Shown: positions 4,401-18,856 of the stretch, in pieces | How positions within the stretch are numbered: position 1 is the stretch's first letter | Layout: the number at the start of each line of letters is the position of its first letter | From: Pseudomonadota bacterium | GTDB lineage: Bacteria; Bdellovibrionota_F; JAHFAK01; JBDREC01 | Length of the DNA: 64,000 bases | Direction of reading: 5' to 3' | NCBI GenBank assembly: GCA_043820105.1 | Contig: JBDREC010000049.1 | Location: 1-64,000 of the forward strand | Notes under the pieces: generated by a model | Databases searched by the model: none | What the model saw: the letters and a program-made list of their open reading frames with translations, nothing else | What the model was told of the DNA's origin: nothing | Program-made: the position numbers and the translations under genes

Positions 4401-4610
4401 TATTCAATTCAATCCTTTCTTTAAAAGCTTTTCTATAGTCTAAATATTAATGATTTTTTAGTTGATATTGATATCTATAATATGCTAAAAATAATGCAGA
4501 CTGTAGTAATATTTTTAACATTTATTTGCTTTCTGTCCTAAAAAATGGGGGGTTATTTTTGTGATAGAGTTTTATCATTAAACAAATTGAATATTGTAAG
4601 GAGGATAATC

Positions 4611-6062
4611 ATGTCAAGACCAGCTAATACTCCCCAAAACCATTCTCAAACCACTTCTCACATAACTATTGATGACAATAGAGAACATTTCGTCAGGCAA
4701 GATCGCTATGAAGTTTTAGAAGAGGAGTATTTCCTCGAAATTGATAAGAATAAATATGAAATTGCAAATTATTCTAGTTTTGGCATTGCTGTGTATTCTT
4801 CTATTGAGCCAGATTCCTTTGGTGATGATCATCAATGTAAATTTTATTTAAATGATCAATTAATTGATGAAATGGTTTTAAAGAAGGTAAGAGATGAGAA
4901 ACTTCAAGAAGGAAATTACAAAATAGCTTTTGAGATAGTTGGAGGATTTTTATCAACAGAAAAAATAAGAGCTGTATCACTTGCGCAAGATTTAATTAAA
5001 AAGCAAAATCTTAAGAACCAGGAATTAAATAATGTACCACTTAATTTTAGAATTAAAGTTTTTGAAATAAAAAATCGCCTTGAGAATTTGAAAAATGAGC
5101 TGGAAGCTTTTCAGACAAATGAATCTTTTATAAATAAAGAACAACAGGGTAGGTTTGAAGATATTGTTATAGATCTAGTGGGCGATTATCTTTATGAATT
5201 TTTCCAAAATTTTTACAAGGAAACTGTAACTGATGTAGAAACCTGGGATGAAAAAACTTTAAAAGAAGGCATGTATTTTTTTAGAGCCCAATTATTTCCA
5301 TTAGTGCAAAAATCTCCATTTGCTTATCAGTGCTATTCAAAGCCAAGGGGTTACGCTGGTGATTATGAGATGATGAATTATCTATATTACAATGATTCTT
5401 TAGGAGATGATCTTTTTGCAAAGGTTATGCATCGATATTACATGAAGCATCCTAACGCTCAAGCTGTTAGAAATAGAGTTGAATATTTGAGCAAAAAGAT
5501 TTTTGAAGTTTTTAAAGAAAAGGAAGGGAAGCCAATTAGGATTTTATCAGTTGCTTCAGGCCCTGCTCAAGAAATTCAAACTTTATTTAGAAATAGCCCT
5601 GAGTTTTATAACTCTAATGTTGAAGTTCATTTAATTGATCAAGATGTGGATTCCCTGAAACATGCTCAACGTGGTATTAAAGAGCTAGCTAGAATAAACA
5701 AGTCAAATGTTACTGTGAAATATTTTAGAAAGGCCATTAGAAATATTATTAGAGATGGTATGGAAGGCTATACATATGATTTAGTCTATTCTTCAGGGCT
5801 TTTTGATTATTTCTCAGATCCAGTTGCTCAGGTGGCAGCCAATAAACTTTTTGATTGTCTAAATGAAAAGGGACGTCTCATTATTGGTAATTTTACATCA
5901 AAACCATATTTAGATATGTCCATGCATTTTTTGCTTGATTGGTATTTATTATATCGCAGTGAAAAAGATCTTGAAAAACTTTATTCTGTTGTTCCTGGAA
6001 AATTATCAATTGAAGCGGAACCAGAAGGAATTAACCTCTTTGTAGTTGTTGATAAGGACTAA
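4611..6062 (+). CDS. class I SAM-dependent methyltransferase, PhcB-like, copy 1
   Basis: KPRGYAGDYEMM, ILSVASGPA (motif I), LIDQD, YSSGLFDY, LIIGNF. Start moved to ATG 4611 after AAGGAGG. Confidence 0.8.
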   Translation: MSRPANTPQNHSQTTSHITIDDNREHFVRQDRYEVLEEEYFLEIDKNKYEIANYSSFGIAVYSSIEPDSFGDDHQCKFYLNDQLIDEMVLKKVRDEKLQEGNYKIAFEIVGGFLSTEKIRAVSLAQDLIKKQNLKNQELNNVPLNFRIKVFEIKNRLENLKNELEAFQTNESFINKEQQGRFEDIVIDLVGDYLYEFFQNFYKETVTDVETWDEKTLKEGMYFFRAQLFPLVQKSPFAYQCYSKPRGYAGDYEMMNYLYYNDSLGDDLFAKVMHRYYMKHPNAQAVRNRVEYLSKKIFEVFKEKEGKPIRILSVASGPAQEIQTLFRNSPEFYNSNVEVHLIDQDVDSLKHAQRGIKELARINKSNVTVKYFRKAIRNIIRDGMEGYTYDLVYSSGLFDYFSDPVAQVAANKLFDCLNEKGRLIIGNFTSKPYLDMSMHFLLDWYLLYRSEKDLEKLYSVVPGKLSIEAEPEGINLFVVVDKD

Positions 6063-6098
6063 GTTTTTTCTAATATTTAATAAAAGTTCAGGATCAGT

Positions 6099-7520
6099 AT
6101 GGCTAATGGTGTTATTTCCATTGAAAGAATAAGGGAAACAGAAAGGCTCAATGAATTTAGGGAATTTACTAGAGTTATAACAGGCTTTATGTCCTTTCCC
6201 TTATATCTTCTTTTTTGGCTTGCTGATCTTTTATATGCACCACACCTTAAATGGGAGTTTTTATTTCTTAGAGTATTAATTATTCCTGTTTGTATTTTTG
6301 TTTATTTTTCAATTAATAAAATAACTAAATTAAATCATGCTCAAATATTAGATACAATCTTATGTTTTGCAAATAGTATTTTAATTACTTTTATGATCTA
6401 TCTAACCGAAGGAGCCATTTCCCCTTATTACGCAGGTTTAAATCTAGTAGCAATACCAATTATAGCTTTTATTCCTTGGACCATGAAATTTTTGATTTTA
6501 AATATATCTTTGATTTATGGCCCCTTGATTTTAGGTATCTTCTTTTTTCCAAATGCAGTTACAGACTATGTTTTATTTATTTTAAATTTGTTTTTTATTT
6601 TTGGAACTATTGCTTTATCTTTAATAATTAGAGTTGATACAGAAAAACTTAGAAAAAAAGAAGTTGCAAGTAAGTTTTTACTAGAAAAGGATGTTAAATA
6701 TCGAGAAAAAATAATTGAAGAAAAAACAAATGAATCTTTAAAACTTAAAACTCTTACAAGGCAGTTTAGTCCTCAGGTTGTTCAGGCAATTTCAAGTGGA
6801 AAACTAGATATTATTAAATCAATTCACAGGGCTCAAATTTGCGCTATTTTTATTGATATTGTTGATTCAACTAAGCACATTGTGCACATTGATAAAGAAT
6901 CTGTTAATAAGGTGCTAACCCTTTTTATTGAAGATACAATGAAAGTTTTACTGAAATATGATATTACTTTAGATAAATTTTTAGGTGATGGAGTTTTAGC
7001 ATTTTCTAATGATCCAATCAAAAGAGTTGATTTTGTTGATAGGGTTATTTTAGCGGCAATGGAAATTAGAACCAGGATAAATAGGAGAAGTGAAGAGTAT
7101 AAAAAATCCTGGAAAGATGTCTTAGAAGTTCGCTTTGGAATTTCTTCTGGTTATGCTGATGTTGGTTTCTATGGCTCAGATAAAAGCTTTAAGTCCTATA
7201 CTGCAATTGGAAGAGTTATTGATTTAACAAAGTCTTTATCAGATGTTGGAGCGCCGGGACAGATAGTTGTGAGTCAAGATGTTACAAAGTTACTTTCAGA
7301 TTCTAAGTTTTTAATTAAAAAAATTGGTCATAAGAAGCTCAAGAGTTTTGAGTCAGATATTATTACTGTCTATGAAGTTGACAGTCTCAAGCTTGATTCA
7401 AGTATAGAAACAGCTGTTGAGAAATGTCCAAATGGTCATGGGATTTTACATTTAGAAATGAACATGAATGGTATATACATATTTAAATGTAGAACTTGCG
7501 GTTATGAATATTCTCTTTAA
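6099..7520 (+). CDS. membrane-bound class III nucleotidyl cyclase, copy 1, with C-terminal Zn-ribbon
   Basis: About 5-6 TM helices (SPYYAGLNLV), FIDIVDST, DKFLGDG, GISSG, YTAIG; CPNGHG...CRTC. Confidence 0.88.
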   Translation: MANGVISIERIRETERLNEFREFTRVITGFMSFPLYLLFWLADLLYAPHLKWEFLFLRVLIIPVCIFVYFSINKITKLNHAQILDTILCFANSILITFMIYLTEGAISPYYAGLNLVAIPIIAFIPWTMKFLILNISLIYGPLILGIFFFPNAVTDYVLFILNLFFIFGTIALSLIIRVDTEKLRKKEVASKFLLEKDVKYREKIIEEKTNESLKLKTLTRQFSPQVVQAISSGKLDIIKSIHRAQICAIFIDIVDSTKHIVHIDKESVNKVLTLFIEDTMKVLLKYDITLDKFLGDGVLAFSNDPIKRVDFVDRVILAAMEIRTRINRRSEEYKKSWKDVLEVRFGISSGYADVGFYGSDKSFKSYTAIGRVIDLTKSLSDVGAPGQIVVSQDVTKLLSDSKFLIKKIGHKKLKSFESDIITVYEVDSLKLDSSIETAVEKCPNGHGILHLEMNMNGIYIFKCRTCGYEYSL

Positions 7521-7587
7521 TTTTTTAAAGAATTATTAATATTTTAAATTTATCATTGCATTTTTATTATTAAGGAAATCTTCATTT

Positions 7588-9030
7588 ATGAGTGATAATA
7601 ATCAATCTTTAGATGAACTAAATGATAATGATACTTTGTTAGTTTCTAATTTTATTATAAGACAGGATCGCTTTGAAGTATTAAATGAAAACTACTTTCT
7701 TAAAATAGGCAATGACACATATGAAGTAATCAATTATTCAAGTTTTGGCTTAGCTATACTACATTCTGAAGTTTTTAGCGATAGCTTTGATCAAATTGAA
7801 GCTGAATTTTTAATGAATAATGTGCTTATTAATAAACCTCTAATAAAGTTGATTAGACAAGAAAAGTATAATGATGAGCGATATCTAATTGCCTTTGAGC
7901 TTTTGTCAGAAGCATTGTCAATTGAAAGAATCAGTTTTATGGGTGATGTTGAAAAGTTGATTAAAAAGAACTGCTTTGAAGACAATAAATGGAGGGAGCT
8001 TCCTTTAGAATATAAAATCAAAGTCTTTGAACTTAAGGATTATTTATATAAGCTAAAAAATGAAATTGATTTAGTGGAAGCAGAAAATAATTCGTCCGAT
8101 CGTCAGGAGTGCTTGTCAGAGTTTAATAAGTCCTTTGTTTCAGTTTTTTCAAAGTTATTGTATAATCAGATTTCTTATTTTTGTTCTGGCATTTTTCCAA
8201 TTCTTAATAAACTTGATGAGGAAAAAAATAAAGAGGCCTTTAGCTTTTTTCATGAACACTTGAAATCTTTCATTAATAAATCAAAGTTAGCTTCTAAGAG
8301 TTTTAAAAAATCATCAAATCATGTTGGAGATCATGAATTATTTAGTTTGATCTACTCTAAAGAACTTTTTAGCCAATCATTATTTGATCAATGCATTGAA
8401 AGTTTTTTTATAAATCTACCGGAAGCAGAAGGCTTTAGAGAAAGGATAGAATATTTTAATAATTGGCTCATAGATGTTTTTAATAAAAATGAAAAGCAGG
8501 ATTTAAAAATATTATCTGTTGTCTCTGGATCAGCTATTGAGCTTAATAATTTATTAAGATCTAAGCAATTAAAATTAAAATACCCATTGGAGATTCATTG
8601 TATTGACCAGGATTTAAATGCCCTTAAACAAGCACAAGCAACTTTTAAAGAATTGCAGCTTGGAAAAGAAGCAATGATCAAATTTATATTTATACAAAAA
8701 AACATTTCCTCTATAATTAGCGCGAAATTTACAGATGATAATTATGATTACATTTATTCTGTAGGTCTTTTTGATTATCTTTCAGATCCTGTTGCTTCAT
8801 TAGCTGCTGTTAATCTGCTTAAGTATTTAAAAGAAGATGGAGAATTAGTAATTGGAAACTCTTCCTATGAAGCAAATAGAAAGCTTGAAATGATTTTTTT
8901 GCTCAAGTGGTATATTGTCCATAGGACTGAAAAGGATCTTTTAAAATTATTTAAGAAAATAACAAAAAAACTTCATATAGAACCATCAAAAGATAGTAAA
9001 AATAATTTTGTCTTTTTAAAAAGAAAGTGA
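7588..9030 (+). CDS. class I SAM-dependent methyltransferase, PhcB-like, copy 2 (divergent)
   Basis: Colinear paralog of 4611-6062 (RQDRFEVL, INYSSFG, IDQD, GLFDYLSDPVA); KPRGYAGD is replaced by KSSNHVGD. Confidence 0.78.
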   Translation: MSDNNQSLDELNDNDTLLVSNFIIRQDRFEVLNENYFLKIGNDTYEVINYSSFGLAILHSEVFSDSFDQIEAEFLMNNVLINKPLIKLIRQEKYNDERYLIAFELLSEALSIERISFMGDVEKLIKKNCFEDNKWRELPLEYKIKVFELKDYLYKLKNEIDLVEAENNSSDRQECLSEFNKSFVSVFSKLLYNQISYFCSGIFPILNKLDEEKNKEAFSFFHEHLKSFINKSKLASKSFKKSSNHVGDHELFSLIYSKELFSQSLFDQCIESFFINLPEAEGFRERIEYFNNWLIDVFNKNEKQDLKILSVVSGSAIELNNLLRSKQLKLKYPLEIHCIDQDLNALKQAQATFKELQLGKEAMIKFIFIQKNISSIISAKFTDDNYDYIYSVGLFDYLSDPVASLAAVNLLKYLKEDGELVIGNSSYEANRKLEMIFLLKWYIVHRTEKDLLKLFKKITKKLHIEPSKDSKNNFVFLKRK

Positions 9031-9045
9031 ATTAAAAAACCAAAT

Positions 9046-10470
9046 ATGAGTGCAGAAGTAAGTTCCATAGAAAAGCTAAGAGAAAAGGATCGTTTTGAAG
9101 AAATATTACGATTCATAAAGCTAAGTGTTTTTAAAATTGCACCTGCAATATTTTTAGCCTTTTGGTTTATTGATTGGCTTTTTGTTCCTCAAAAAAAGTG
9201 GGAATTGCTGGTTCTTAGATTTATGCTTATTCCATATTCTTTAATCTTTTCAGTTTTTTTAAATAAAGTTAAAACTATAGTAGAGGCTCAGATTCTTGGA
9301 ACTGCCTTGGTTTTATTCTATTCAATTAATTTAACACTGTGTATTTTTGTGTCTGGGGATGTTAGTTCCCCTTATTACGCCAGTCTTAATTTTATTACCA
9401 TAATTGCAATTGCCTTTGTTCCGTGGAGTAAAAAATTTCTAGTCTTTAATATTCTAATAATTTATGGTCCCTTTTATTTTGTTGCATTGGTTTTTTATAA
9501 TTATTTCTTTGGATACGTTCCCTTAATAATTAATTCATTTTTTATTGTTGGGACTGTTGTTATAAGCACCTTGATTCGATATTTTACTGAGAAGCTCAGG
9601 AAAAGTGAGGTTGTGGCCAAATATGTTTTAGAAAAAGAACTTAAATATAGAGAAAAAATAATTCAGCAAAAAACACAGGAAGCTTTAAAACTTGAAAATT
9701 TGACAAAACAATTTAGTCCACAAGTTGCTCATTACATTCTTAAGGAAGATAAACTTAAAATTGTTAACCAAGTTCACAGAGCCCAAATTTGTGCTATTTT
9801 TATAGACATTGTAGATTTCGCTGAAAGAATAGTTAGAGTTGATAAGGACGATGCAAATAAAGTTATTACAATGTTTTTAGATGAATCAATGGAAATTCTT
9901 TTAAAATATGATATTACTTTAGATAAATTTTTAGGCAGTGGAATTTTAGCATTTTCAAATGATCCCGTTGCTCATGATGATTATGTAGAAAGAGTTTTGC
10001 AGGCAGCAATTGAAATTAAAGAAAAAATAAGGCAAAATGAAGAAACTTATATTGAAAATTGGCTAAATGTTTTGCAGATACGAATTGGTATTTCTAGTGG
10101 CATTGCAGATGTTGGTTTCTATGGAACTGATGAAACATTCCAATCATACACTGCAATTGGTCAGGTTGTAAATTTAGCAGCAAGACTTTGCTATGCAGCA
10201 GAACCCGATCAAATTGTTATAAGTGAAGATATTAAAGAAAACTTACCTGTTAACAAATACGAATTTGAAAGAATTGGAGAAAAACCTCTAAAAGGTTTTG
10301 AAGGAAAATCCATATCCATCTATGGTCTTATTGGATACAAAGAAGAAACTTTTATTGATACTAATGTTAGAGAATGCCCAAATGGACATGGAATTTTACA
10401 TCTTGATTCAAATGAAAAGGGCATCTATGTTTTTAAGTGTCGAACCTGCAACTATCAGCAATCTCTTTGA
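9046..10470 (+). CDS. membrane-bound class III nucleotidyl cyclase, copy 2, with C-terminal Zn-ribbon
   Basis: Paralog of 6099-7520; FIDIVDF, DKFLGSG, YTAIGQVVNLAARL; CPNGHG...CRTC. Confidence 0.88.
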   Translation: MSAEVSSIEKLREKDRFEEILRFIKLSVFKIAPAIFLAFWFIDWLFVPQKKWELLVLRFMLIPYSLIFSVFLNKVKTIVEAQILGTALVLFYSINLTLCIFVSGDVSSPYYASLNFITIIAIAFVPWSKKFLVFNILIIYGPFYFVALVFYNYFFGYVPLIINSFFIVGTVVISTLIRYFTEKLRKSEVVAKYVLEKELKYREKIIQQKTQEALKLENLTKQFSPQVAHYILKEDKLKIVNQVHRAQICAIFIDIVDFAERIVRVDKDDANKVITMFLDESMEILLKYDITLDKFLGSGILAFSNDPVAHDDYVERVLQAAIEIKEKIRQNEETYIENWLNVLQIRIGISSGIADVGFYGTDETFQSYTAIGQVVNLAARLCYAAEPDQIVISEDIKENLPVNKYEFERIGEKPLKGFEGKSISIYGLIGYKEETFIDTNVRECPNGHGILHLDSNEKGIYVFKCRTCNYQQSL

Positions 10471-12322: not shown

Positions 12323-14938
12323 TTAAAAACTTATTAGATAGGAAACTGTTTCAGCATCAAATACTTTGCAAATATTTTCTTCCATTGGGTTAAATATTTT
12401 ATCGTAAGTTTCGATTGTGCCATCAAATCTAATATCAGTAGCAACTTCATATCTTGCTTGAAATAGATCTTCATTGTTGCAAAGGGTATTGTATATATCT
12501 GTGCCTGAAGCATATACAAATTGATTTAGTTCAGGCATCCAGAGACGTGGCCTATCATTTGCTATAAGGTTTCCAAAGAGAATACATTCTATCCTCAATT
12601 CTTCTCTTAATTTATTCTTTTCATCTTCATCGTAATAACCATGCTGGGTGCTGGGTACTACAAATACAGCAGATAAGATTTCTGCCCATGCACTAGCATA
12701 ATTGGCGGGTGAAATTAGTAAGTTTGTTTTCCAACTAACCAATTCAATATAGTTTTCAAACAAAGATTTATCTAGTGAAAGATCTGGAAAAATGTGTCCC
12801 CAGTAACGGCTTATGGATTTCCAATAATCAACTTTTCCATAAATGTTCACAAGTGTTTGTACCATAGAAGAAACAAGGGGTTTTAGGATTAGGTTTTGAA
12901 GAGGAGCTTGCAATTTGCCAAGAATATCAAGAGTTGCAGCTGGACTGTAGTTAAGTTCTCTTATTTCAGAATAATAATCATGTTTAATTAAATAGGTTAA
13001 AATTGCTATCTTCTGATCTTTAAACACAGTATCAATATCTTCAATTGAAAGTGAATGTTTGTTTTCAAGGAAATCAAGAGTGGATAGGAAGGTTATTAAA
13101 CCTATATGGATTACAGAGAATTCCTTGTCTTTAAAAAGTTCTAAAAAGTTTAATAATAATGGTTCTATTGTAACATTAAAATAATCTTGTATTATTTGAG
13201 AACTTTCTTGAACAGGTTCATAAAAAACATCATTTATATCTTCCCATGTAATTTCTACTGGCATATGAACATATAATCTTTCTGTTTGAGAAATAAAGTC
13301 ATCTTTATTAGAGCTATCCATATATATTTCAAAAAGAAGGTCAAAAAAGTTTCTTGCATTAAGTTCTGTTTGAATTGAGTTTGGAACCTCTATTGTTTGG
13401 CTACAATCTTCCTGGCCTGTATCTTTATCTTCAACACACCGCATTTCCATATCAGCTGGGTTGGAAACCATTGGATTAGATTCATATTCAATTAAGAGAA
13501 AAATTGCATCATTATCAATTTTAGCTGTGATTTTATCACTAAACTTTTGAGTTCTAATTTGTCGTTCAAAGTTCGCTACCTTATTTTCATTAAAGCTTAG
13601 AATTGTATTAACAAGGTTTAATGCATGCTGAATTAATGAATATTCATAACTATAATTTTCCAGAGCAGGAAATTTGAAGTTTTTTAAATTTTCGTATAAT
13701 TCATTGTAATTTTCAAAATAACTCTTAGCTTCAATAAAGTCTAGTTCTTCTTCTCTTAATAAAAATCCGTTTAAGCTGTTTTGTGATTGGGTTTCAATTC
13801 TTTGAGAAATAAGAGCAACATTTTGCAAAGTTTTTTCCATTAAAGTCCAATATTCAGTCATGTGCTCTTTTATTTCATTCTTGTCATAAATATAATCTGC
13901 CATTCTATAAATAGCGTTATCTTTTAAAAGCTGTTCCTCTTTTCGTAAAGAGCAGTGAATTTGTTCAAAATTCCAGTAAATACATTCAAATGATTTGAAG
14001 GCTATGATTTCCTCTATTTCAGAAATCGCATTATTAGTTATTAAAAAATCTATATTACTAATTAAGTTTGTTACAGCCGTTGAAATTACTTGGGCTATAC
14101 TTGCTACTGCACCAACCTTTCCTGGGATTGTTGACAGAAGCATGGAAGATTGAGAGACAAGATTTCCTATAGATTTTGCTATTGATGTTTGTTTTAAACA
14201 GACTTTAGGTGTTGAATTTACTTTTGTTGATACTACAGATAAATATAGAATGAGTTGAGATAATAGATGGCTTTTTGATTTTCTGGAGTTTTGCGCTTCT
14301 TCTATATCTAAAATTTTGCTAAAATATTCATCTTCAGTGGTTTTTGATAGACTTAATCTTTCGATATCGGAAAAATTTTTATCAACGTAAGTTATGATTG
14401 AACTATTAAAGAAATCAACTAAGTTAGCTATTTCAGATAAATTAGTTCCCTCAGTTTTTAGTTGGGCTATCATTTTCAAAAATTCTGTTTCATAAGTGTT
14501 AATTTCTGATAAACGACTTTCGAAATAAGGGTTACCTCTGCTGACCTCTTCATGTATATTGTTTCCCGGGCTTTCCATTTCAATGATACTATCAATAGTA
14601 GTAATGATCTTATTTTCTTCTTCTGTATTAAAGTTTTTATCAACTTTTTGCCCACAGTTTTCATAATCATTAACTAAGCTTTCTACTGATGCCTTTAGCT
14701 GTTCAGCTAGCTTTACGAAATTTTTCTCAAGTGCAAAAGGACAGACTTCTTTGGATGACATTGTAAAATTTTGATGATTAAGTTCACTAAAGGCCGAATC
14801 TTTGGCTGCAGCTAAAACTGTTCTCTTTGTGTGAATAAGATGTGTAAATGAAGGAATCTCGATAGCTTCTTCAGTTAATGCAAAGCTTGTGGTGAAAAAG
14901 AAGCTTACAAGTAAAAAAATAAATTTAAATTTAGTCAT
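12323..14938 (-). CDS. large secreted helical hypothetical protein
   Basis: Long ORF; GGAGG RBS before ATG 14938; signal peptide ending SFA. Confidence 0.75.
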   Translation of the reverse strand: MTKFKFIFLLVSFFFTTSFALTEEAIEIPSFTHLIHTKRTVLAAAKDSAFSELNHQNFTMSSKEVCPFALEKNFVKLAEQLKASVESLVNDYENCGQKVDKNFNTEEENKIITTIDSIIEMESPGNNIHEEVSRGNPYFESRLSEINTYETEFLKMIAQLKTEGTNLSEIANLVDFFNSSIITYVDKNFSDIERLSLSKTTEDEYFSKILDIEEAQNSRKSKSHLLSQLILYLSVVSTKVNSTPKVCLKQTSIAKSIGNLVSQSSMLLSTIPGKVGAVASIAQVISTAVTNLISNIDFLITNNAISEIEEIIAFKSFECIYWNFEQIHCSLRKEEQLLKDNAIYRMADYIYDKNEIKEHMTEYWTLMEKTLQNVALISQRIETQSQNSLNGFLLREEELDFIEAKSYFENYNELYENLKNFKFPALENYSYEYSLIQHALNLVNTILSFNENKVANFERQIRTQKFSDKITAKIDNDAIFLLIEYESNPMVSNPADMEMRCVEDKDTGQEDCSQTIEVPNSIQTELNARNFFDLLFEIYMDSSNKDDFISQTERLYVHMPVEITWEDINDVFYEPVQESSQIIQDYFNVTIEPLLLNFLELFKDKEFSVIHIGLITFLSTLDFLENKHSLSIEDIDTVFKDQKIAILTYLIKHDYYSEIRELNYSPAATLDILGKLQAPLQNLILKPLVSSMVQTLVNIYGKVDYWKSISRYWGHIFPDLSLDKSLFENYIELVSWKTNLLISPANYASAWAEILSAVFVVPSTQHGYYDEDEKNKLREELRIECILFGNLIANDRPRLWMPELNQFVYASGTDIYNTLCNNEDLFQARYEVATDIRFDGTIETYDKIFNPMEENICKVFDAETVSYLISF

Positions 14939-15189
14939 AAATCCTCCCAAAAGTTAAATTCCCCAAACTAACTCTAAAAACACAAATGTATACAAATGTG
15001 TTAAACCAATAACGAAATTAGTATGTCTCACTTTTTTAAAATCCGTAAGAATTAATGACATTCAAAACTGCGCTAAAATCCTATTTAAGCATGTGCTTGC
15101 TGTTTAGTATCTCCCTAAATTTGGACTTAACCGGCAGCTTAGAAAATATTGACGTGTGTATAAGATTAAGAAAATCTACCATTCTCCCC

Positions 15190-15306: not shown

Positions 15307-16587
15307 CTATAGCTCAAGAGCTATGTTTAAGGAGCTTTGCGCTAGTGTTGCTGTTTTATGCTTTGTGTGGAAGTAGGTAATAAAGAGCAATGATATAAGA
15401 ACAATTGGATAGTGACATAAAAAGACTGTTGTTGAAATAGGAAGAGCTTTCATGATTATTGGAACAATAATAAAACCAATTCCAAATCCTGTTCTTAATA
15501 CAAGGCTTGTTAAAGCAAACAGCTTGCCTCTAACTGCATCTTCGGATTTTTGAATATAACTGGTATAAAAGGTTTGGTATATACCATCTCCAAAACCTGC
15601 AATTAAAGCGGCTATAATAATTATTGGAATAAAGTTTGTTTGAAAAATTAATATCATGCCTGCTGACATAATTGCAGTAAAGCATAGATATAGGTTTTCT
15701 GCTTTTAGGCTTTTTAAGAATTTAGCCTTATTTAAAAACATAATACCTATAATATTACCTAGTCCCCAAAACATTAAAATTAAGCCATAAAAAAACATAG
15801 GTTTTTGAGGATCAAGATCTTTTGAAAATACTGGGAAACCAATGTTGTGCGATGCAGATGCAATGGCATCAAGAAATAGTATTGAAAGACAAATTATAAT
15901 TATATTAAAATTGTTTAAATTCGGAAGTTTTGAATAGTCATTTTTTAATTTATTAAATAGTGAGCAAGTCTTCTGGTTTTCCAGGACTTGACTACTTTTG
16001 ATTTGTGGTCTGGTGCTGAGTTTAATAAAAAAAAGTATAATTCCACTTATAAAATATGTAATTGAATCAAGAAAGAATATTGGATAATAATTCTTAAATA
16101 AATAATAAGCAAATACAGCTGCTAAGCCACTAAGGGCAAATGTTAAGTTCATGCCTCCCATTAATAAAGAGTTAGCCTTCATAGTATCTTTTTGATTTAA
16201 TATTGATGGAATGGATGCTCTCAAATTAATCTCAAATAAATTTGAAAAAACACCTATAAAAATCATCAAAAATAAAACATAGTATTTTATAACACTCTCA
16301 GGTACTATAAGTAAAAATGCTACTGCTACAGCCAAAACAAGATCTGAAGTTATCATTAGTTTTTTTCTATCAACTTTGTCTGATATATATCCTGAATAGG
16401 GCGCAGCTATAATTCCTGAAATTACTCTTGTTCCCATGGCGTATGCGATCCATAAGGGATCTTTTGTAAGTTCCAAAAGGAAAATATTAATCGCCATCAT
16501 ATTGAGAAATGAACCAAAGGTAGATCCAAGTCTAGAAATTAGTAGGATATAAAAATTTAGTGGCAGTTTATTATCTTTAGCTGTCAT
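15307..16587 (-). CDS. MFS transporter (efflux-type)
   Basis: About 12 TM helices, motif A GYISDKVDRKKLM. Confidence 0.9.
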   Translation of the reverse strand: MTAKDNKLPLNFYILLISRLGSTFGSFLNMMAINIFLLELTKDPLWIAYAMGTRVISGIIAAPYSGYISDKVDRKKLMITSDLVLAVAVAFLLIVPESVIKYYVLFLMIFIGVFSNLFEINLRASIPSILNQKDTMKANSLLMGGMNLTFALSGLAAVFAYYLFKNYYPIFFLDSITYFISGIILFFIKLSTRPQIKSSQVLENQKTCSLFNKLKNDYSKLPNLNNFNIIIICLSILFLDAIASASHNIGFPVFSKDLDPQKPMFFYGLILMFWGLGNIIGIMFLNKAKFLKSLKAENLYLCFTAIMSAGMILIFQTNFIPIIIIAALIAGFGDGIYQTFYTSYIQKSEDAVRGKLFALTSLVLRTGFGIGFIIVPIIMKALPISTTVFLCHYPIVLISLLFITYFHTKHKTATLAQSSLNIALEL

Positions 16588-16608
16588 AGATTCTCCATAA
16601 AAAAATAT

Positions 16609-17775
16609 TCAGTTCGTCAAATGCAATATACTGTCTAATGAATGTTGATAATAAAGATATGGTAAGATATTTAAACCATGTTTTTTAATTAAATTTTCAA
16701 CGTAATAGCTGCCAATAGGATAACTTGGTGTATAAAATTTATCATCTTCTGTAAAGTAGTCAGTTCTTTGCTTTATCAAAGCATCAGAAAATAACATATC
16801 GTTTTTTAATATGTCAAAATATTTTCTGGAAATTTCTTTTTCTTCAATGTTTTTACTGTACCACATATTATAAAATAATTTATGTAAGAATTTTTCAATT
16901 TTTTGTGTTATTAAAACTCTTGATCCAAGCAGGTCTCCAAATATTAAATCTGAATTGACAGCTAAGCCTTCATTAATCATATTTTCTGGAGAATAAAAGG
17001 TATCTATAGAGCCTACTAAATCAATTTGGCTATTATCAATTTGATATTGTTTTATTAAATAGTATAAATGGTGTCCAGGGATAACCTCATGACAAATAAA
17101 AGCCTTAATAAATTCATCTGATAGATTGGACTTTATACAAATGCCAAGTGTTCCCTGATAGTTTCCGTCATAGTGGTAATAACAAGTTGGATCTTCTGGC
17201 CCACTTTCTATGATTTTAATTTTTGAATTAGATAAAATCTTTTCAAGGTCTAATTTGAAAAGAGCTGAATATTTCTGACTTGTTATTTCATAATATTTAC
17301 TTATTACTTTAGAAACATAGTTGCCTAAGTCATTTTTGTTTTTGAATAAAACTATTCGGTTTTCATTTTTAAATTCTTCTAAATTTTTATACCCTAAGTT
17401 ATATAGGTGAGAATTTAATTTATTTAATTCTTGTTCAATATTAAATTTAGGAATTAATTTAATTCCATGTAATTTTTCGACCGTGTCTTTAAAACTCGTG
17501 TTTTTGTAGTCATTAACAAAATAATCCGCTTGAGTTAGAATAGAGGTTAGGAGATCTTTAAAGTATGTTTCTCGGTGCTTTAAGTTAACAACAGTTGTTG
17601 ATTGATTGATTTCATATAGAATAGAGGATAGATTCCTGTAAGCATTTTTAAATGATATTTTGCTGGCATTATGTTCGATGTTTTTTGGGCCTATGTAGCT
17701 ATGAATAAATTCATAGTCTTCAAAAGAGCTTGAAAGTGCCAGAATGTTTTTAGTAATATCTTTGTAAATATCCAT
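16609..17775 (-). CDS. DUF885-like putative zinc metallopeptidase
   Basis: CHEVIPGHH motif followed by NEGLA and a C-terminal SYPIG; no signal peptide. Confidence 0.65.
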   Translation of the reverse strand: MDIYKDITKNILALSSSFEDYEFIHSYIGPKNIEHNASKISFKNAYRNLSSILYEINQSTTVVNLKHRETYFKDLLTSILTQADYFVNDYKNTSFKDTVEKLHGIKLIPKFNIEQELNKLNSHLYNLGYKNLEEFKNENRIVLFKNKNDLGNYVSKVISKYYEITSQKYSALFKLDLEKILSNSKIKIIESGPEDPTCYYHYDGNYQGTLGICIKSNLSDEFIKAFICHEVIPGHHLYYLIKQYQIDNSQIDLVGSIDTFYSPENMINEGLAVNSDLIFGDLLGSRVLITQKIEKFLHKLFYNMWYSKNIEEKEISRKYFDILKNDMLFSDALIKQRTDYFTEDDKFYTPSYPIGSYYVENLIKKHGLNILPYLYYQHSLDSILHLTN

Positions 17776-17791
17776 ATGTCTCTTCCTTTGT

Positions 17792-18856
17792 CTAAAGTGT
17801 AGATTCTACAATGTGCTTGTAGCAATATTCATTTTTATATATTGATTTATGCAAAGAATAGGCCATGGATAGGCATCCGGCTTTACATTCTTCGTGTGAG
17901 CTACAGTTTTGACAGTTGCCTTCCATTTGTTTTGGATCATAATTTCTTGTATATGCAAAGCAATTATCATCATACCAAATATCTTTTAATGATCTATTTC
18001 TAACATTTCCAGCAGAGAACTTATCATCTTGCAGTGAAAGACAACCCTTAACATTTCCATTTGACTCAATTCCTAATACATATTTTCCAGCACTACAGCC
18101 ATCCCAGGTAGCGCCATCTAAGAGCTTGTCAATTTTATCATGGCAATAACCCATCGAGTCTGCTATTGTTATCTTAATTTTATCTCCATACTCTTCTTTC
18201 CATTTTAATATATCATTTGTTAATTCTACTAATTGATTTTTTTCAACAATTAGACTCTCAGCGTTTTTGCCCGCTCTACCAAAGGAGTTAACGATTTGTA
18301 CCTGCCAGATATCAACACCTTTATCCATGAGAATCTTTAATATATCCGCTCTTTGTGCAAAGTTTAATTTATTAAAGGAGGTGACGATACCAACTCTGTA
18401 ATTATTTTCTTGGCACATATCTATAACATTCATGACATTATTATACGCACCTTTATACTGTCTAATATAATCATGAGTATTTTCATTTCCATCAAGGCTG
18501 ATTGCAATATGTGTTGATTTTTTGCTTTTTAAGAATCTGATGTCATCTTCAGTGATTTGAGCTCCATTGCTAATTATGCTGATTTCAGAATAATCATCAT
18601 TTTCTGATTTAATATAATTTACTAATTCTCTCCAATGAGGATACATGAAGGGTTCTCCCCCTGAAAGAGTAAAGTATTTGGCTTTAAGGGATTTTAATTC
18701 ATCTATTACTTTTTTCCATTCATTTAAATTTAAGCTATTTGCACGATTTTGTCCATTAGCATAAGATCCACAATGGATACATCTCATATTACAGGCAAGA
18801 GTTACCTCTAGGGCAACAGCATATGGAAAGAATTTATCATCTACATATAGAGGCAT
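17792..18856 (-). CDS. radical SAM/SPASM peptide maturase
   Basis: CNMRCIHC, SGGEP, ISLDG; SPASM domain CSAG...GNVKGC...CQNC.....CKAGC...YC; AAGGAG RBS. Confidence 0.92.
   Translation of the reverse strand: MPLYVDDKFFPYAVALEVTLACNMRCIHCGSYANGQNRANSLNLNEWKKVIDELKSLKAKYFTLSGGEPFMYPHWRELVNYIKSENDDYSEISIISNGAQITEDDIRFLKSKKSTHIAISLDGNENTHDYIRQYKGAYNNVMNVIDMCQENNYRVGIVTSFNKLNFAQRADILKILMDKGVDIWQVQIVNSFGRAGKNAESLIVEKNQLVELTNDILKWKEEYGDKIKITIADSMGYCHDKIDKLLDGATWDGCSAGKYVLGIESNGNVKGCLSLQDDKFSAGNVRNRSLKDIWYDDNCFAYTRNYDPKQMEGNCQNCSSHEECKAGCLSMAYSLHKSIYKNEYCYKHIVESTL

Follow-up and report, generated by a model that had tools for sequence, protein, structure and literature searches.

Tandem duplication of a methyltransferase-like/membrane cyclase module with complementary active-site losses: a candidate two-gene class III cyclase heterodimer in a bacterium

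Two modules and the catalytic residues of their cyclases

The 64,000-nucleotide stretch of DNA analyzed here (contig JBDREC010000049.1, positions 1 to 64,000; hereafter the window) carries, at 4545-10470 on the plus strand, a tandem duplication of a two-gene module, in which a gene for a PilZ-like/S-adenosylmethionine (SAM) methyltransferase protein is followed by a gene for a class III nucleotide cyclase with six transmembrane helices (6TM) and a C-terminal zinc ribbon. Four consecutive open reading frames (ORFs) make up the region, named MT1, CYC1, MT2 and CYC2 in their order (Table 1), and the module as such is conserved in Bdellovibrionota. An original prediction, made from the letters of 6099-10470, had proposed that the two cyclases form an obligate heterodimer; it was silent on MT2, a third gene that lies within this same interval (7588-9030), and on the duplication of the whole module. 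Both cyclase ORFs are intact and share 50% identity over their full length in a pairwise alignment, and MT1 and MT2 share 36%. Because the cyclase pair and the methyltransferase pair are both paralogous, the duplicated unit is the two-gene module and not the cyclase alone. All four genes run in the same direction, separated by spacers of 36, 67 and 15 bases, and no terminator-like site that would separate them was found on the plus strand, such that a single transcript for MT1-CYC1-MT2-CYC2 appears plausible from the sequence.

Each cyclase consists of about six hydrophobic helices in residues 20-180, a helical linker, a catalytic domain and a Cys-rich C-terminal tail. Both pass the gathering score of Pfam family PF00211 (47.3 bits for CYC1 and 55.7 bits for CYC2, with a cut-off of 21.9), and the best solved match is CyaB of P. 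aeruginosa (3r5g; HMMER, E 9e-18). For the membrane domains, the precomputed annotation of many homologues as well as of CYC1 and CYC2 lists MASE8 (PF20968); a local scan of both N-termini at E values up to 10 gave no match to it, a genome search gave no match at the locus, and Pfam and NCBIfam scans of the two membrane domains yielded nothing usable.

Table 1. Genes and active-site features of the duplicated modules (positions in the window)
Feature	Position	Strand	Description
MT1	4545..6062	+	505 aa; N-terminal PilZ-like beta-barrel (~residues 55-135), helical region, C-terminal class I SAM-methyltransferase fold
CYC1	6099..7520	+	473 aa; ~6 transmembrane helices, helical linker, class III cyclase domain, C-terminal zinc ribbon; candidate 'C1-like' partner
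CYC1 D253	6855..6857	+	first metal-binding Asp (FIDIV); phosphate-loop S257/T258 after D253 retained
CYC1 G296-D297-G298	6984..6992	+	second metal-binding Asp D297 retained; K293 just upstream
CYC1 D375-L-T-K-S379	7221..7235	+	replaces family N-L-A-S-R; N375D, A377T, S378K, R379S; within VIDLTKSL
CYC1 zinc-ribbon-like tail	7425..7517	+	C443, C464, C467 invariant in family alignment; weak Zn-ribbon Pfam matches
MT2	7588..9030	+	480 aa; diverged MT1 paralogue
CYC2	9046..10470	+	474 aa; CYC1 paralogue; candidate 'C2-like' partner
CYC2 F258-A259	9817..9822	+	replaces family Ser-Thr (99-100% conserved) after first metal Asp; S258F, T259A
CYC2 S298 (AGT)	9937..9939	+	D298S, in place of second metal-binding Asp; within GSG
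CYC2 N376-L-A-A-R380	10171..10185	+	intact transition-state motif

The two cyclases differ in which half of the catalytic machinery they have kept. CYC1 retains the metal- and phosphate-binding side (D253, S257/T258, D297 and R345) and is without the transition-state Asn and Arg, and CYC2 retains K294, T369, N376, R380 and K416 together with the first Asp (D254) and is without the second metal Asp and the phosphate-loop Ser-Thr. Of the two copies, only CYC1 has the complete metal-binding Asp pair and only CYC2 the transition-state Asn and Arg; the full catalytic set (two Asp plus Lys, Asp/Thr, Asn and Arg) is absent within either protomer and is complete only across both. In HMMER alignments to CyaB (3r5g) and to Spirulina CyaC (1wc0), the CYC2 GSG has its Ser at the position of the GD-motif Asp of these enzymes, and the CYC2 NLAAR aligns with their NLA(s/a)R. 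The Lys-Thr pair of base recognition is present in both copies (K293/T368 in CYC1, K294/T369 in CYC2) and invariant in a 25-sequence family alignment; we take this pair to mark ATP specificity and to place the enzymes in class IIIb. The original prediction had read these motifs correctly, with exact coordinates: the retained metal Asp of CYC1 in FIDIV and GDG, its DLTKS in place of NxAAR, and, in CYC2, the NLAAR motif, the Ser of GSG and the ATP-selecting Lys and Thr.

In class III cyclases the active site is assembled from both protomers at their interface, and neither copy paired with itself should therefore have a complete site. PMC4821796 describes bacterial class III cyclases as requiring homodimerization and mammalian ones as pseudoheterodimers with complementary domains, and it reports that the point mutants D300A and R376A of Rv1625c, each inactive, complement each other to an active dimer.

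Rarity of the two active-site states among homologues

To place these states within the family, we aligned the 120 best homologues, mostly from Bdellovibrionota by the few source names given, and scored eight catalytic columns. The second metal Asp is kept by 119 of the 120, with CYC2 as the sole exception, and the transition-state Arg likewise by 119 of the 120, with CYC1 as the sole exception. The full canonical set is present in 66/120. Among the other sequences, the most frequent deviation is Pro in place of Asn (29/120; P0054-P0103 and others), where 26 of these 29 share the state DKDRTPRK, named Bdellovibrio proteins included; either Asn is dispensable in the family, or this clade would have an altered activity. 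Lys in place of the first Arg occurs in 14/120, and the remainder are minor variants.

These counts bear on the alternative that one or both proteins are usefully active as homodimers, in which case the modules would be independent receptors with different inputs and the heterodimer would be optional or absent. The frequent Pro for Asn suggests tolerance at that position, CYC1 and CYC2 are each preceded by a partner gene, as are the single-copy orthologues, and the membrane domains of CYC1 and CYC2 have diverged, all of which would suit two independent receptors. However, the Arg and the second Asp are each kept nearly without exception, PMC4821796 describes the equivalent Rv1625c point mutants as inactive, and CYC2 has in addition lost the highly conserved phosphate-loop Ser-Thr. 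We therefore regard useful homodimer activity as quite unlikely.

An exhaustive HMMER search with CYC2 against 1.84 billion cluster representatives yielded 110 further 50%-identity cluster representatives with a complete domain. The second Asp is absent in three of them (P0169, P0218 and P0233) and the Arg in four (P0169, P0199, P0218 and P0245), where P0169 and P0218 are fully degenerate, with the state ER[YH][RK]SEQP. Two cyclase-domain ORFs were found in 9 of 160 loci scanned, and all 18 domains examined keep both Asp, the Asn and the Arg. Neighboring cyclases are thus not rare and reciprocal loss is, since the domains of these two-cyclase loci are canonical throughout. On these sequence comparisons, we judge the reciprocal-loss pattern to be more than chance for this family.

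Three proteins from this search have unusual states of their own. P0199 (474 aa), a single-unit member of the family, is C1-like, as it keeps both Asp and carries Gln, Glu and Pro for the Asn, the Arg and the last Lys; it might have a partner of its own. In P0222 (883 aa), two units that each join a membrane domain to a cyclase domain appear to be fused in tandem: hydrophobic clusters span 4-189 and 469-653, the cyclase domains cover 233-423 and 695-883, and the latter of these has Ser/His for Asn/Arg. P0233 (1415 aa) has two adjacent cyclase domains in reciprocal states and no membrane domain: in domain 1 both Asp are present and Trp replaces the Arg, and in domain 2 the two Asp are replaced by Asn and Ser while the Asn, Arg and Lys are retained. 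Judged by its residues, P0233 resembles a fused soluble C1-C2 enzyme.

The composite site and the duplication behind it

We modeled the complex from CYC1 residues 185-473 and CYC2 residues 186-474, with a 25-row alignment for each, ATP and two Mg, which was one of the checks that the original prediction had proposed. The heterodimer model reached an ipSAE (interaction prediction score from aligned errors) of 0.75, versus 0.33 for the best control; 58 of 80 solved complexes and 2 of 110 mismatched pairs reached the pass mark that this model cleared. Model runs agreed in at least 94% of contacts, with a predicted local distance difference test score (pLDDT) of at least 81 for the partners, and the contacts of lowest error joined CYC1 S257/T258 with CYC2 N376, R380 and K416-F418. 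The modeled interface is the predicted intact composite site in a canonical head-to-tail dimer. Because cyclase dimers have already been solved, the pass may reflect likeness to these known homodimers.

The changes between the two copies were examined at columns with at least 85% conservation among the other 118 homologue sequences. Within the catalytic domain, CYC1 alone deviates by A377T, R379S, A384G and G416S, and in a column of lower conservation by N375D, and CYC2 alone by S258F, T259A, D298S and D421K; both copies deviate by I291L and at S378, where CYC1 has K and CYC2 has A. We then defined motif windows, grouped by their established function in class III cyclases, for the metal/phosphate side (the GD motif, the first Arg and the loop that follows the first Asp) and for the base/transition-state side (the Lys, the helix stretch from Thr to Asn-x-x-x-Arg, and the Lys-Gly loop). 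The composite site that combines the metal side of CYC1 with the Asn/Arg side of CYC2 is changed at 1 of 27 conserved positions (S to A, giving NLAAR), versus 8 of 27 for the reciprocal composite site (Fisher p 0.024, to be read as descriptive only because the windows were chosen after seeing the data). At the conserved columns that lie elsewhere, 1 and 2 of 35 deviate.

Both copies have been maintained for long under purifying selection, as the ratio of nonsynonymous to synonymous divergence (dN/dS) between CYC1 and CYC2 is 0.24 over the whole genes and 0.25 for the catalytic domain, at a synonymous divergence (dS) of ~1.8. Their end branches in the family tree are long (0.52 and 0.77, versus a median of 0.31). 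A branch in the trees groups CYC1 and CYC2 with the long-branch protein P0046 (Shimodaira-Hasegawa-like support 94 and 88), and P0046 falls with CYC1 in two trees with weak support (79). A constraint that makes CYC1 and CYC2 sisters was not rejected (approximately unbiased test, p-AU 0.574) and scored 2.1 log-likelihood units better than the free search. The duplication may be older than a sister relation implies. No second family copy was found in 43 related loci within up to 7 kb on each side, and the duplication appears, from these sequences, to be lineage-specific and independent of the one that gave rise to the mammalian transmembrane adenylyl cyclases (tmACs).

As the probable explanation, we favor that CYC1 and CYC2 form an obligate heterodimer with one active site, which arose by tandem operon duplication and complementary degeneration. 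An ancestral operon of a PilZ-like/methyltransferase gene and a homodimeric 6TM class III adenylate cyclase would have been duplicated in tandem in this lineage, after which the cyclase copies would have lost complementary halves of their shared active site. Upon head-to-tail pairing of CYC1 with CYC2, one complete site for the conversion of ATP to cyclic AMP (cAMP) would form from the Asp pair of CYC1 and the Lys/Thr/Asn/Arg/Lys of CYC2, and the other pocket would be degenerate, an arrangement as in mammalian C1/C2 that would here come from two genes. None of the computational checks weakened the heterodimer that had originally been predicted, and the residue states, the complex model and the contrast between the composite sites all lean toward it.

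A number of points weigh against this explanation. The complex model cannot separate a preference for the heterodimer from one for the homodimers. Since Pro stands in place of Asn in so many homologues, the Asn is possibly non-essential in the family, and N375D alone means little. Once each copy had lost one essential residue, the losses would have fallen in opposite half-sites at about even odds by chance. At a 70% conservation threshold, the contrast between the composite sites is weaker (3/35 versus 10/35 changed, p 0.062). Module 2 looks generally relaxed, which would also fit slow decay: at 70 columns conserved in 20 orthologues, MT2 deviates at 25 versus 7 for MT1, its changes including most of the near-invariant KPRGYAGDYEMMN block, which suggests that MT2 is relaxed or changed in function, and at conserved positions of the membrane domain CYC2 deviates at eight versus none for CYC1 alone, with G120 deviating in both. 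The equivalence of D300 and R376 in Rv1625c to the second metal Asp and the transition-state Arg is an assumption. The CYC1/CYC2 pair is seen in one draft genome only. At E <= 1e-30 the cyclase family is absent from 40 relatives of the source genome (2 from the same order, 1 from the same class and the rest from the same domain only). The nearest homologues are ~50% identical, with no close relative that shows the reciprocal states conserved; scans of genome and metagenome contigs found no homologue above 51% identity.

Part of this evidence fits an alternative in which both copies are catalytically dead and survive as a sensor, scaffold or regulator (e.g., of the methyltransferase-like neighbors or of other cyclases), or in which module 2 is slowly decaying, with the complementarity of the losses being coincidental. 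Each copy lacks a residue present in every other aligned homologue, there are relatives with wholly degenerate sites (P0169, P0218 and a domain on contig C50 of the source genome), MT2 and the CYC2 membrane domain deviate as described, and the even odds of opposite-side losses apply here as well. The source genome moreover has three other canonical class III cyclases (contigs C10, C90 and C86), and its cAMP supply need not depend on the pair. Dispensable catalysis, however, predicts a drift of both sites at the dS observed, yet one composite site is intact at 26 of 27 positions whereas the other is changed at eight, and both genes are intact with a low dN/dS. We consider this alternative unlikely.

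An assembly or sequencing artefact, such as a chimeric contig or base-call errors, would be conceivable in a draft genome as fragmented as this one (113 contigs; 92.9% complete, 2.2% contamination). However, CYC1 and CYC2 share only 60% nucleotide identity, which rules out a single gene that was collapsed or duplicated in assembly. The codons of interest in CYC1 are GAT for D375 at 7221 and TCT for S379 at 7233; the Ser codons of the two copies (TCT and AGT) would each need two or more base changes to become the Arg (AGA) or Asp (GAT) codon found in the other copy, and additional substitutions lie nearby, a pattern that a single base-call error does not explain. Short, low-depth contigs from two groundwater DNA studies also match parts of the region without differences (shares 0.21 and 0.15; 7221-7235 is not covered), but these are not independent support because they may stem from the source sample. 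Among the sequencing runs listed for the region, none was of RNA. With these points, we regard an artefact as extremely improbable.

The association of the cyclase with its upstream partner is common in the family. Among 31 family loci in species genomes, 27 have an MT orthologue as the gene immediately before the cyclase, three more distant loci lack it and one is cut by a contig end; among 12 metagenome loci, a few of which duplicate loci of the genome set, 11 have it and the twelfth is cut by a contig end. Where both ORFs were called (25 loci), the spacing ranges from -20 to +63 bases when the most upstream start codons are used. The MT family (~480-510 aa) has a PilZ-like barrel with invariant R..R and N.S.FG motifs, and a class I SAM-methyltransferase fold. 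Pfam methyltransferase matches of MT1 are weak and below cut-off, its AlphaFold2 model has a pLDDT of 83, and the top Foldseek matches listed are mostly SAM methyltransferases. The PilZ evidence for the N-terminus consists of PilZ leads from the Atlas and a PF07238 match in 1 of 22 orthologue N-termini (E 0.0072), beyond which Pfam and NCBIfam scans of the MT N-termini gave nothing usable; a profile search with the MT N-terminus against the sequences of the Protein Data Bank gave no match. By its predicted domains, the MT partner may link cyclic di-GMP or methylation to cAMP synthesis.

The source genome has no other copy of the family, and at 14100-15000 of its contig C50, a cyclase-homology domain with essentially all catalytic residues lost lies within an open frame of 1349 aa. 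The source lineage is sparsely sampled, yet the homologues of the operon are Bdellovibrionota-like. The modules are flanked by ordinary chromosomal genes, with RmuC upstream and a major facilitator superfamily (MFS) transporter and a radical SAM/SPASM enzyme downstream. The downstream genes belong to a minus-strand row at 15307-18856, made up of the MFS transporter, a 388-aa ORF without a family and the radical SAM/SPASM enzyme, which is adjoined by an 875-aa ORF without a Pfam match (12323-14950, minus strand); together these may form a peptide-modification cluster.

Relation to known cyclase dimers and significance

The closest functional parallel is the mammalian tmAC, in which the metal Asp come from C1 and the residues for substrate and transition state from C2, leaving a single active site beside a forskolin-binding pseudo-site (PMC4174876); the origin proposed for it is duplication and fusion of a bacterial 6TM progenitor (PMC9552081). 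The locus shares with it the two 6TM-plus-cyclase units, one domain with the metal Asp pair and the other with Lys, Asp/Thr, Asn and Arg. It differs in that the units are two ORFs separated by a 480-aa gene instead of one 12TM polypeptide, in that the context of G protein and forskolin is missing, and in that the cyclases end in a zinc ribbon and have a PilZ-like/methyltransferase partner of their own encoded upstream. The closest solved relative is here CyaB, and we take the Lys/Thr pair to be a class IIIb trait and the tmACs to be class IIIa. By its sequence features, the pair would work like C1/C2 and is not a member of the tmAC family.

Other systems share only part of these features. The Rv1625c mutants D300A and R376A likewise concern a bacterial 6TM class III cyclase, with one monomer without a catalytic Asp and the other without a catalytic Arg, but they are laboratory point mutants of one gene, whereas the states of CYC1 and CYC2 are natural, occur in 50%-identical paralogues and are accompanied by additional changes in the half-sites concerned. 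The Bdellovibrionota orthologues (MASE8-type), 40-53% identical, agree in the order of their domains, in the zinc ribbon and in the partner encoded upstream, but they are single-copy in the loci examined and keep both Asp and the Arg, and are presumably homodimers on that account. Soluble guanylate cyclase alpha/beta and the chytrid RGC/NeoR cyclases are class III heterodimers from separate genes (PMC8815786), but they are eukaryotic, and chytrid RGC1/RGC2 retain all catalytic residues, with heterodimerization ascribed to other regions (PMC8815786). Among the homologues described above, P0233 shares the reciprocal domain states but is a single polypeptide without a membrane domain, and P0222 shares the two membrane-plus-cyclase units in a mammalian-like topology but is likewise a single polypeptide. 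In the open-access literature searched, with subscription-journal surveys outside its scope, we found no description of a natural bacterial two-gene cyclase pair.

A further-reaching interpretation, which we put forward tentatively as possible though short of probable, is that the pair is a natural, unfused bacterial C1/C2 membrane adenylate cyclase, and with that a living example of the step of duplication followed by complementary degeneration that is thought to precede tmAC fusion. The two halves would then carry different membrane sensor domains and their own PilZ-like/methyltransferase partners, and two inputs would converge on a single catalytic site of the heterodimer. The degenerate pocket, which still has Lys, Thr and one Asp, could be a regulatory nucleotide-binding site, and an allosteric role for it is speculation on our part.

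Cyclase heterodimers have been treated as a feature mainly of higher eukaryotes (PMC8815786), and the asymmetric one-site design is regarded as eukaryotic and as reproduced in bacteria only by engineered mutants (PMC8815786 and PMC4821796). If the heterodimer is real, this design could arise by ordinary duplication and complementary loss, without fusion. Two small genes would then provide a simple system for asking what a degenerate second site does, whether two different 6TM domains can jointly control one catalytic site, and what role the conserved PilZ-like/methyltransferase partner plays.

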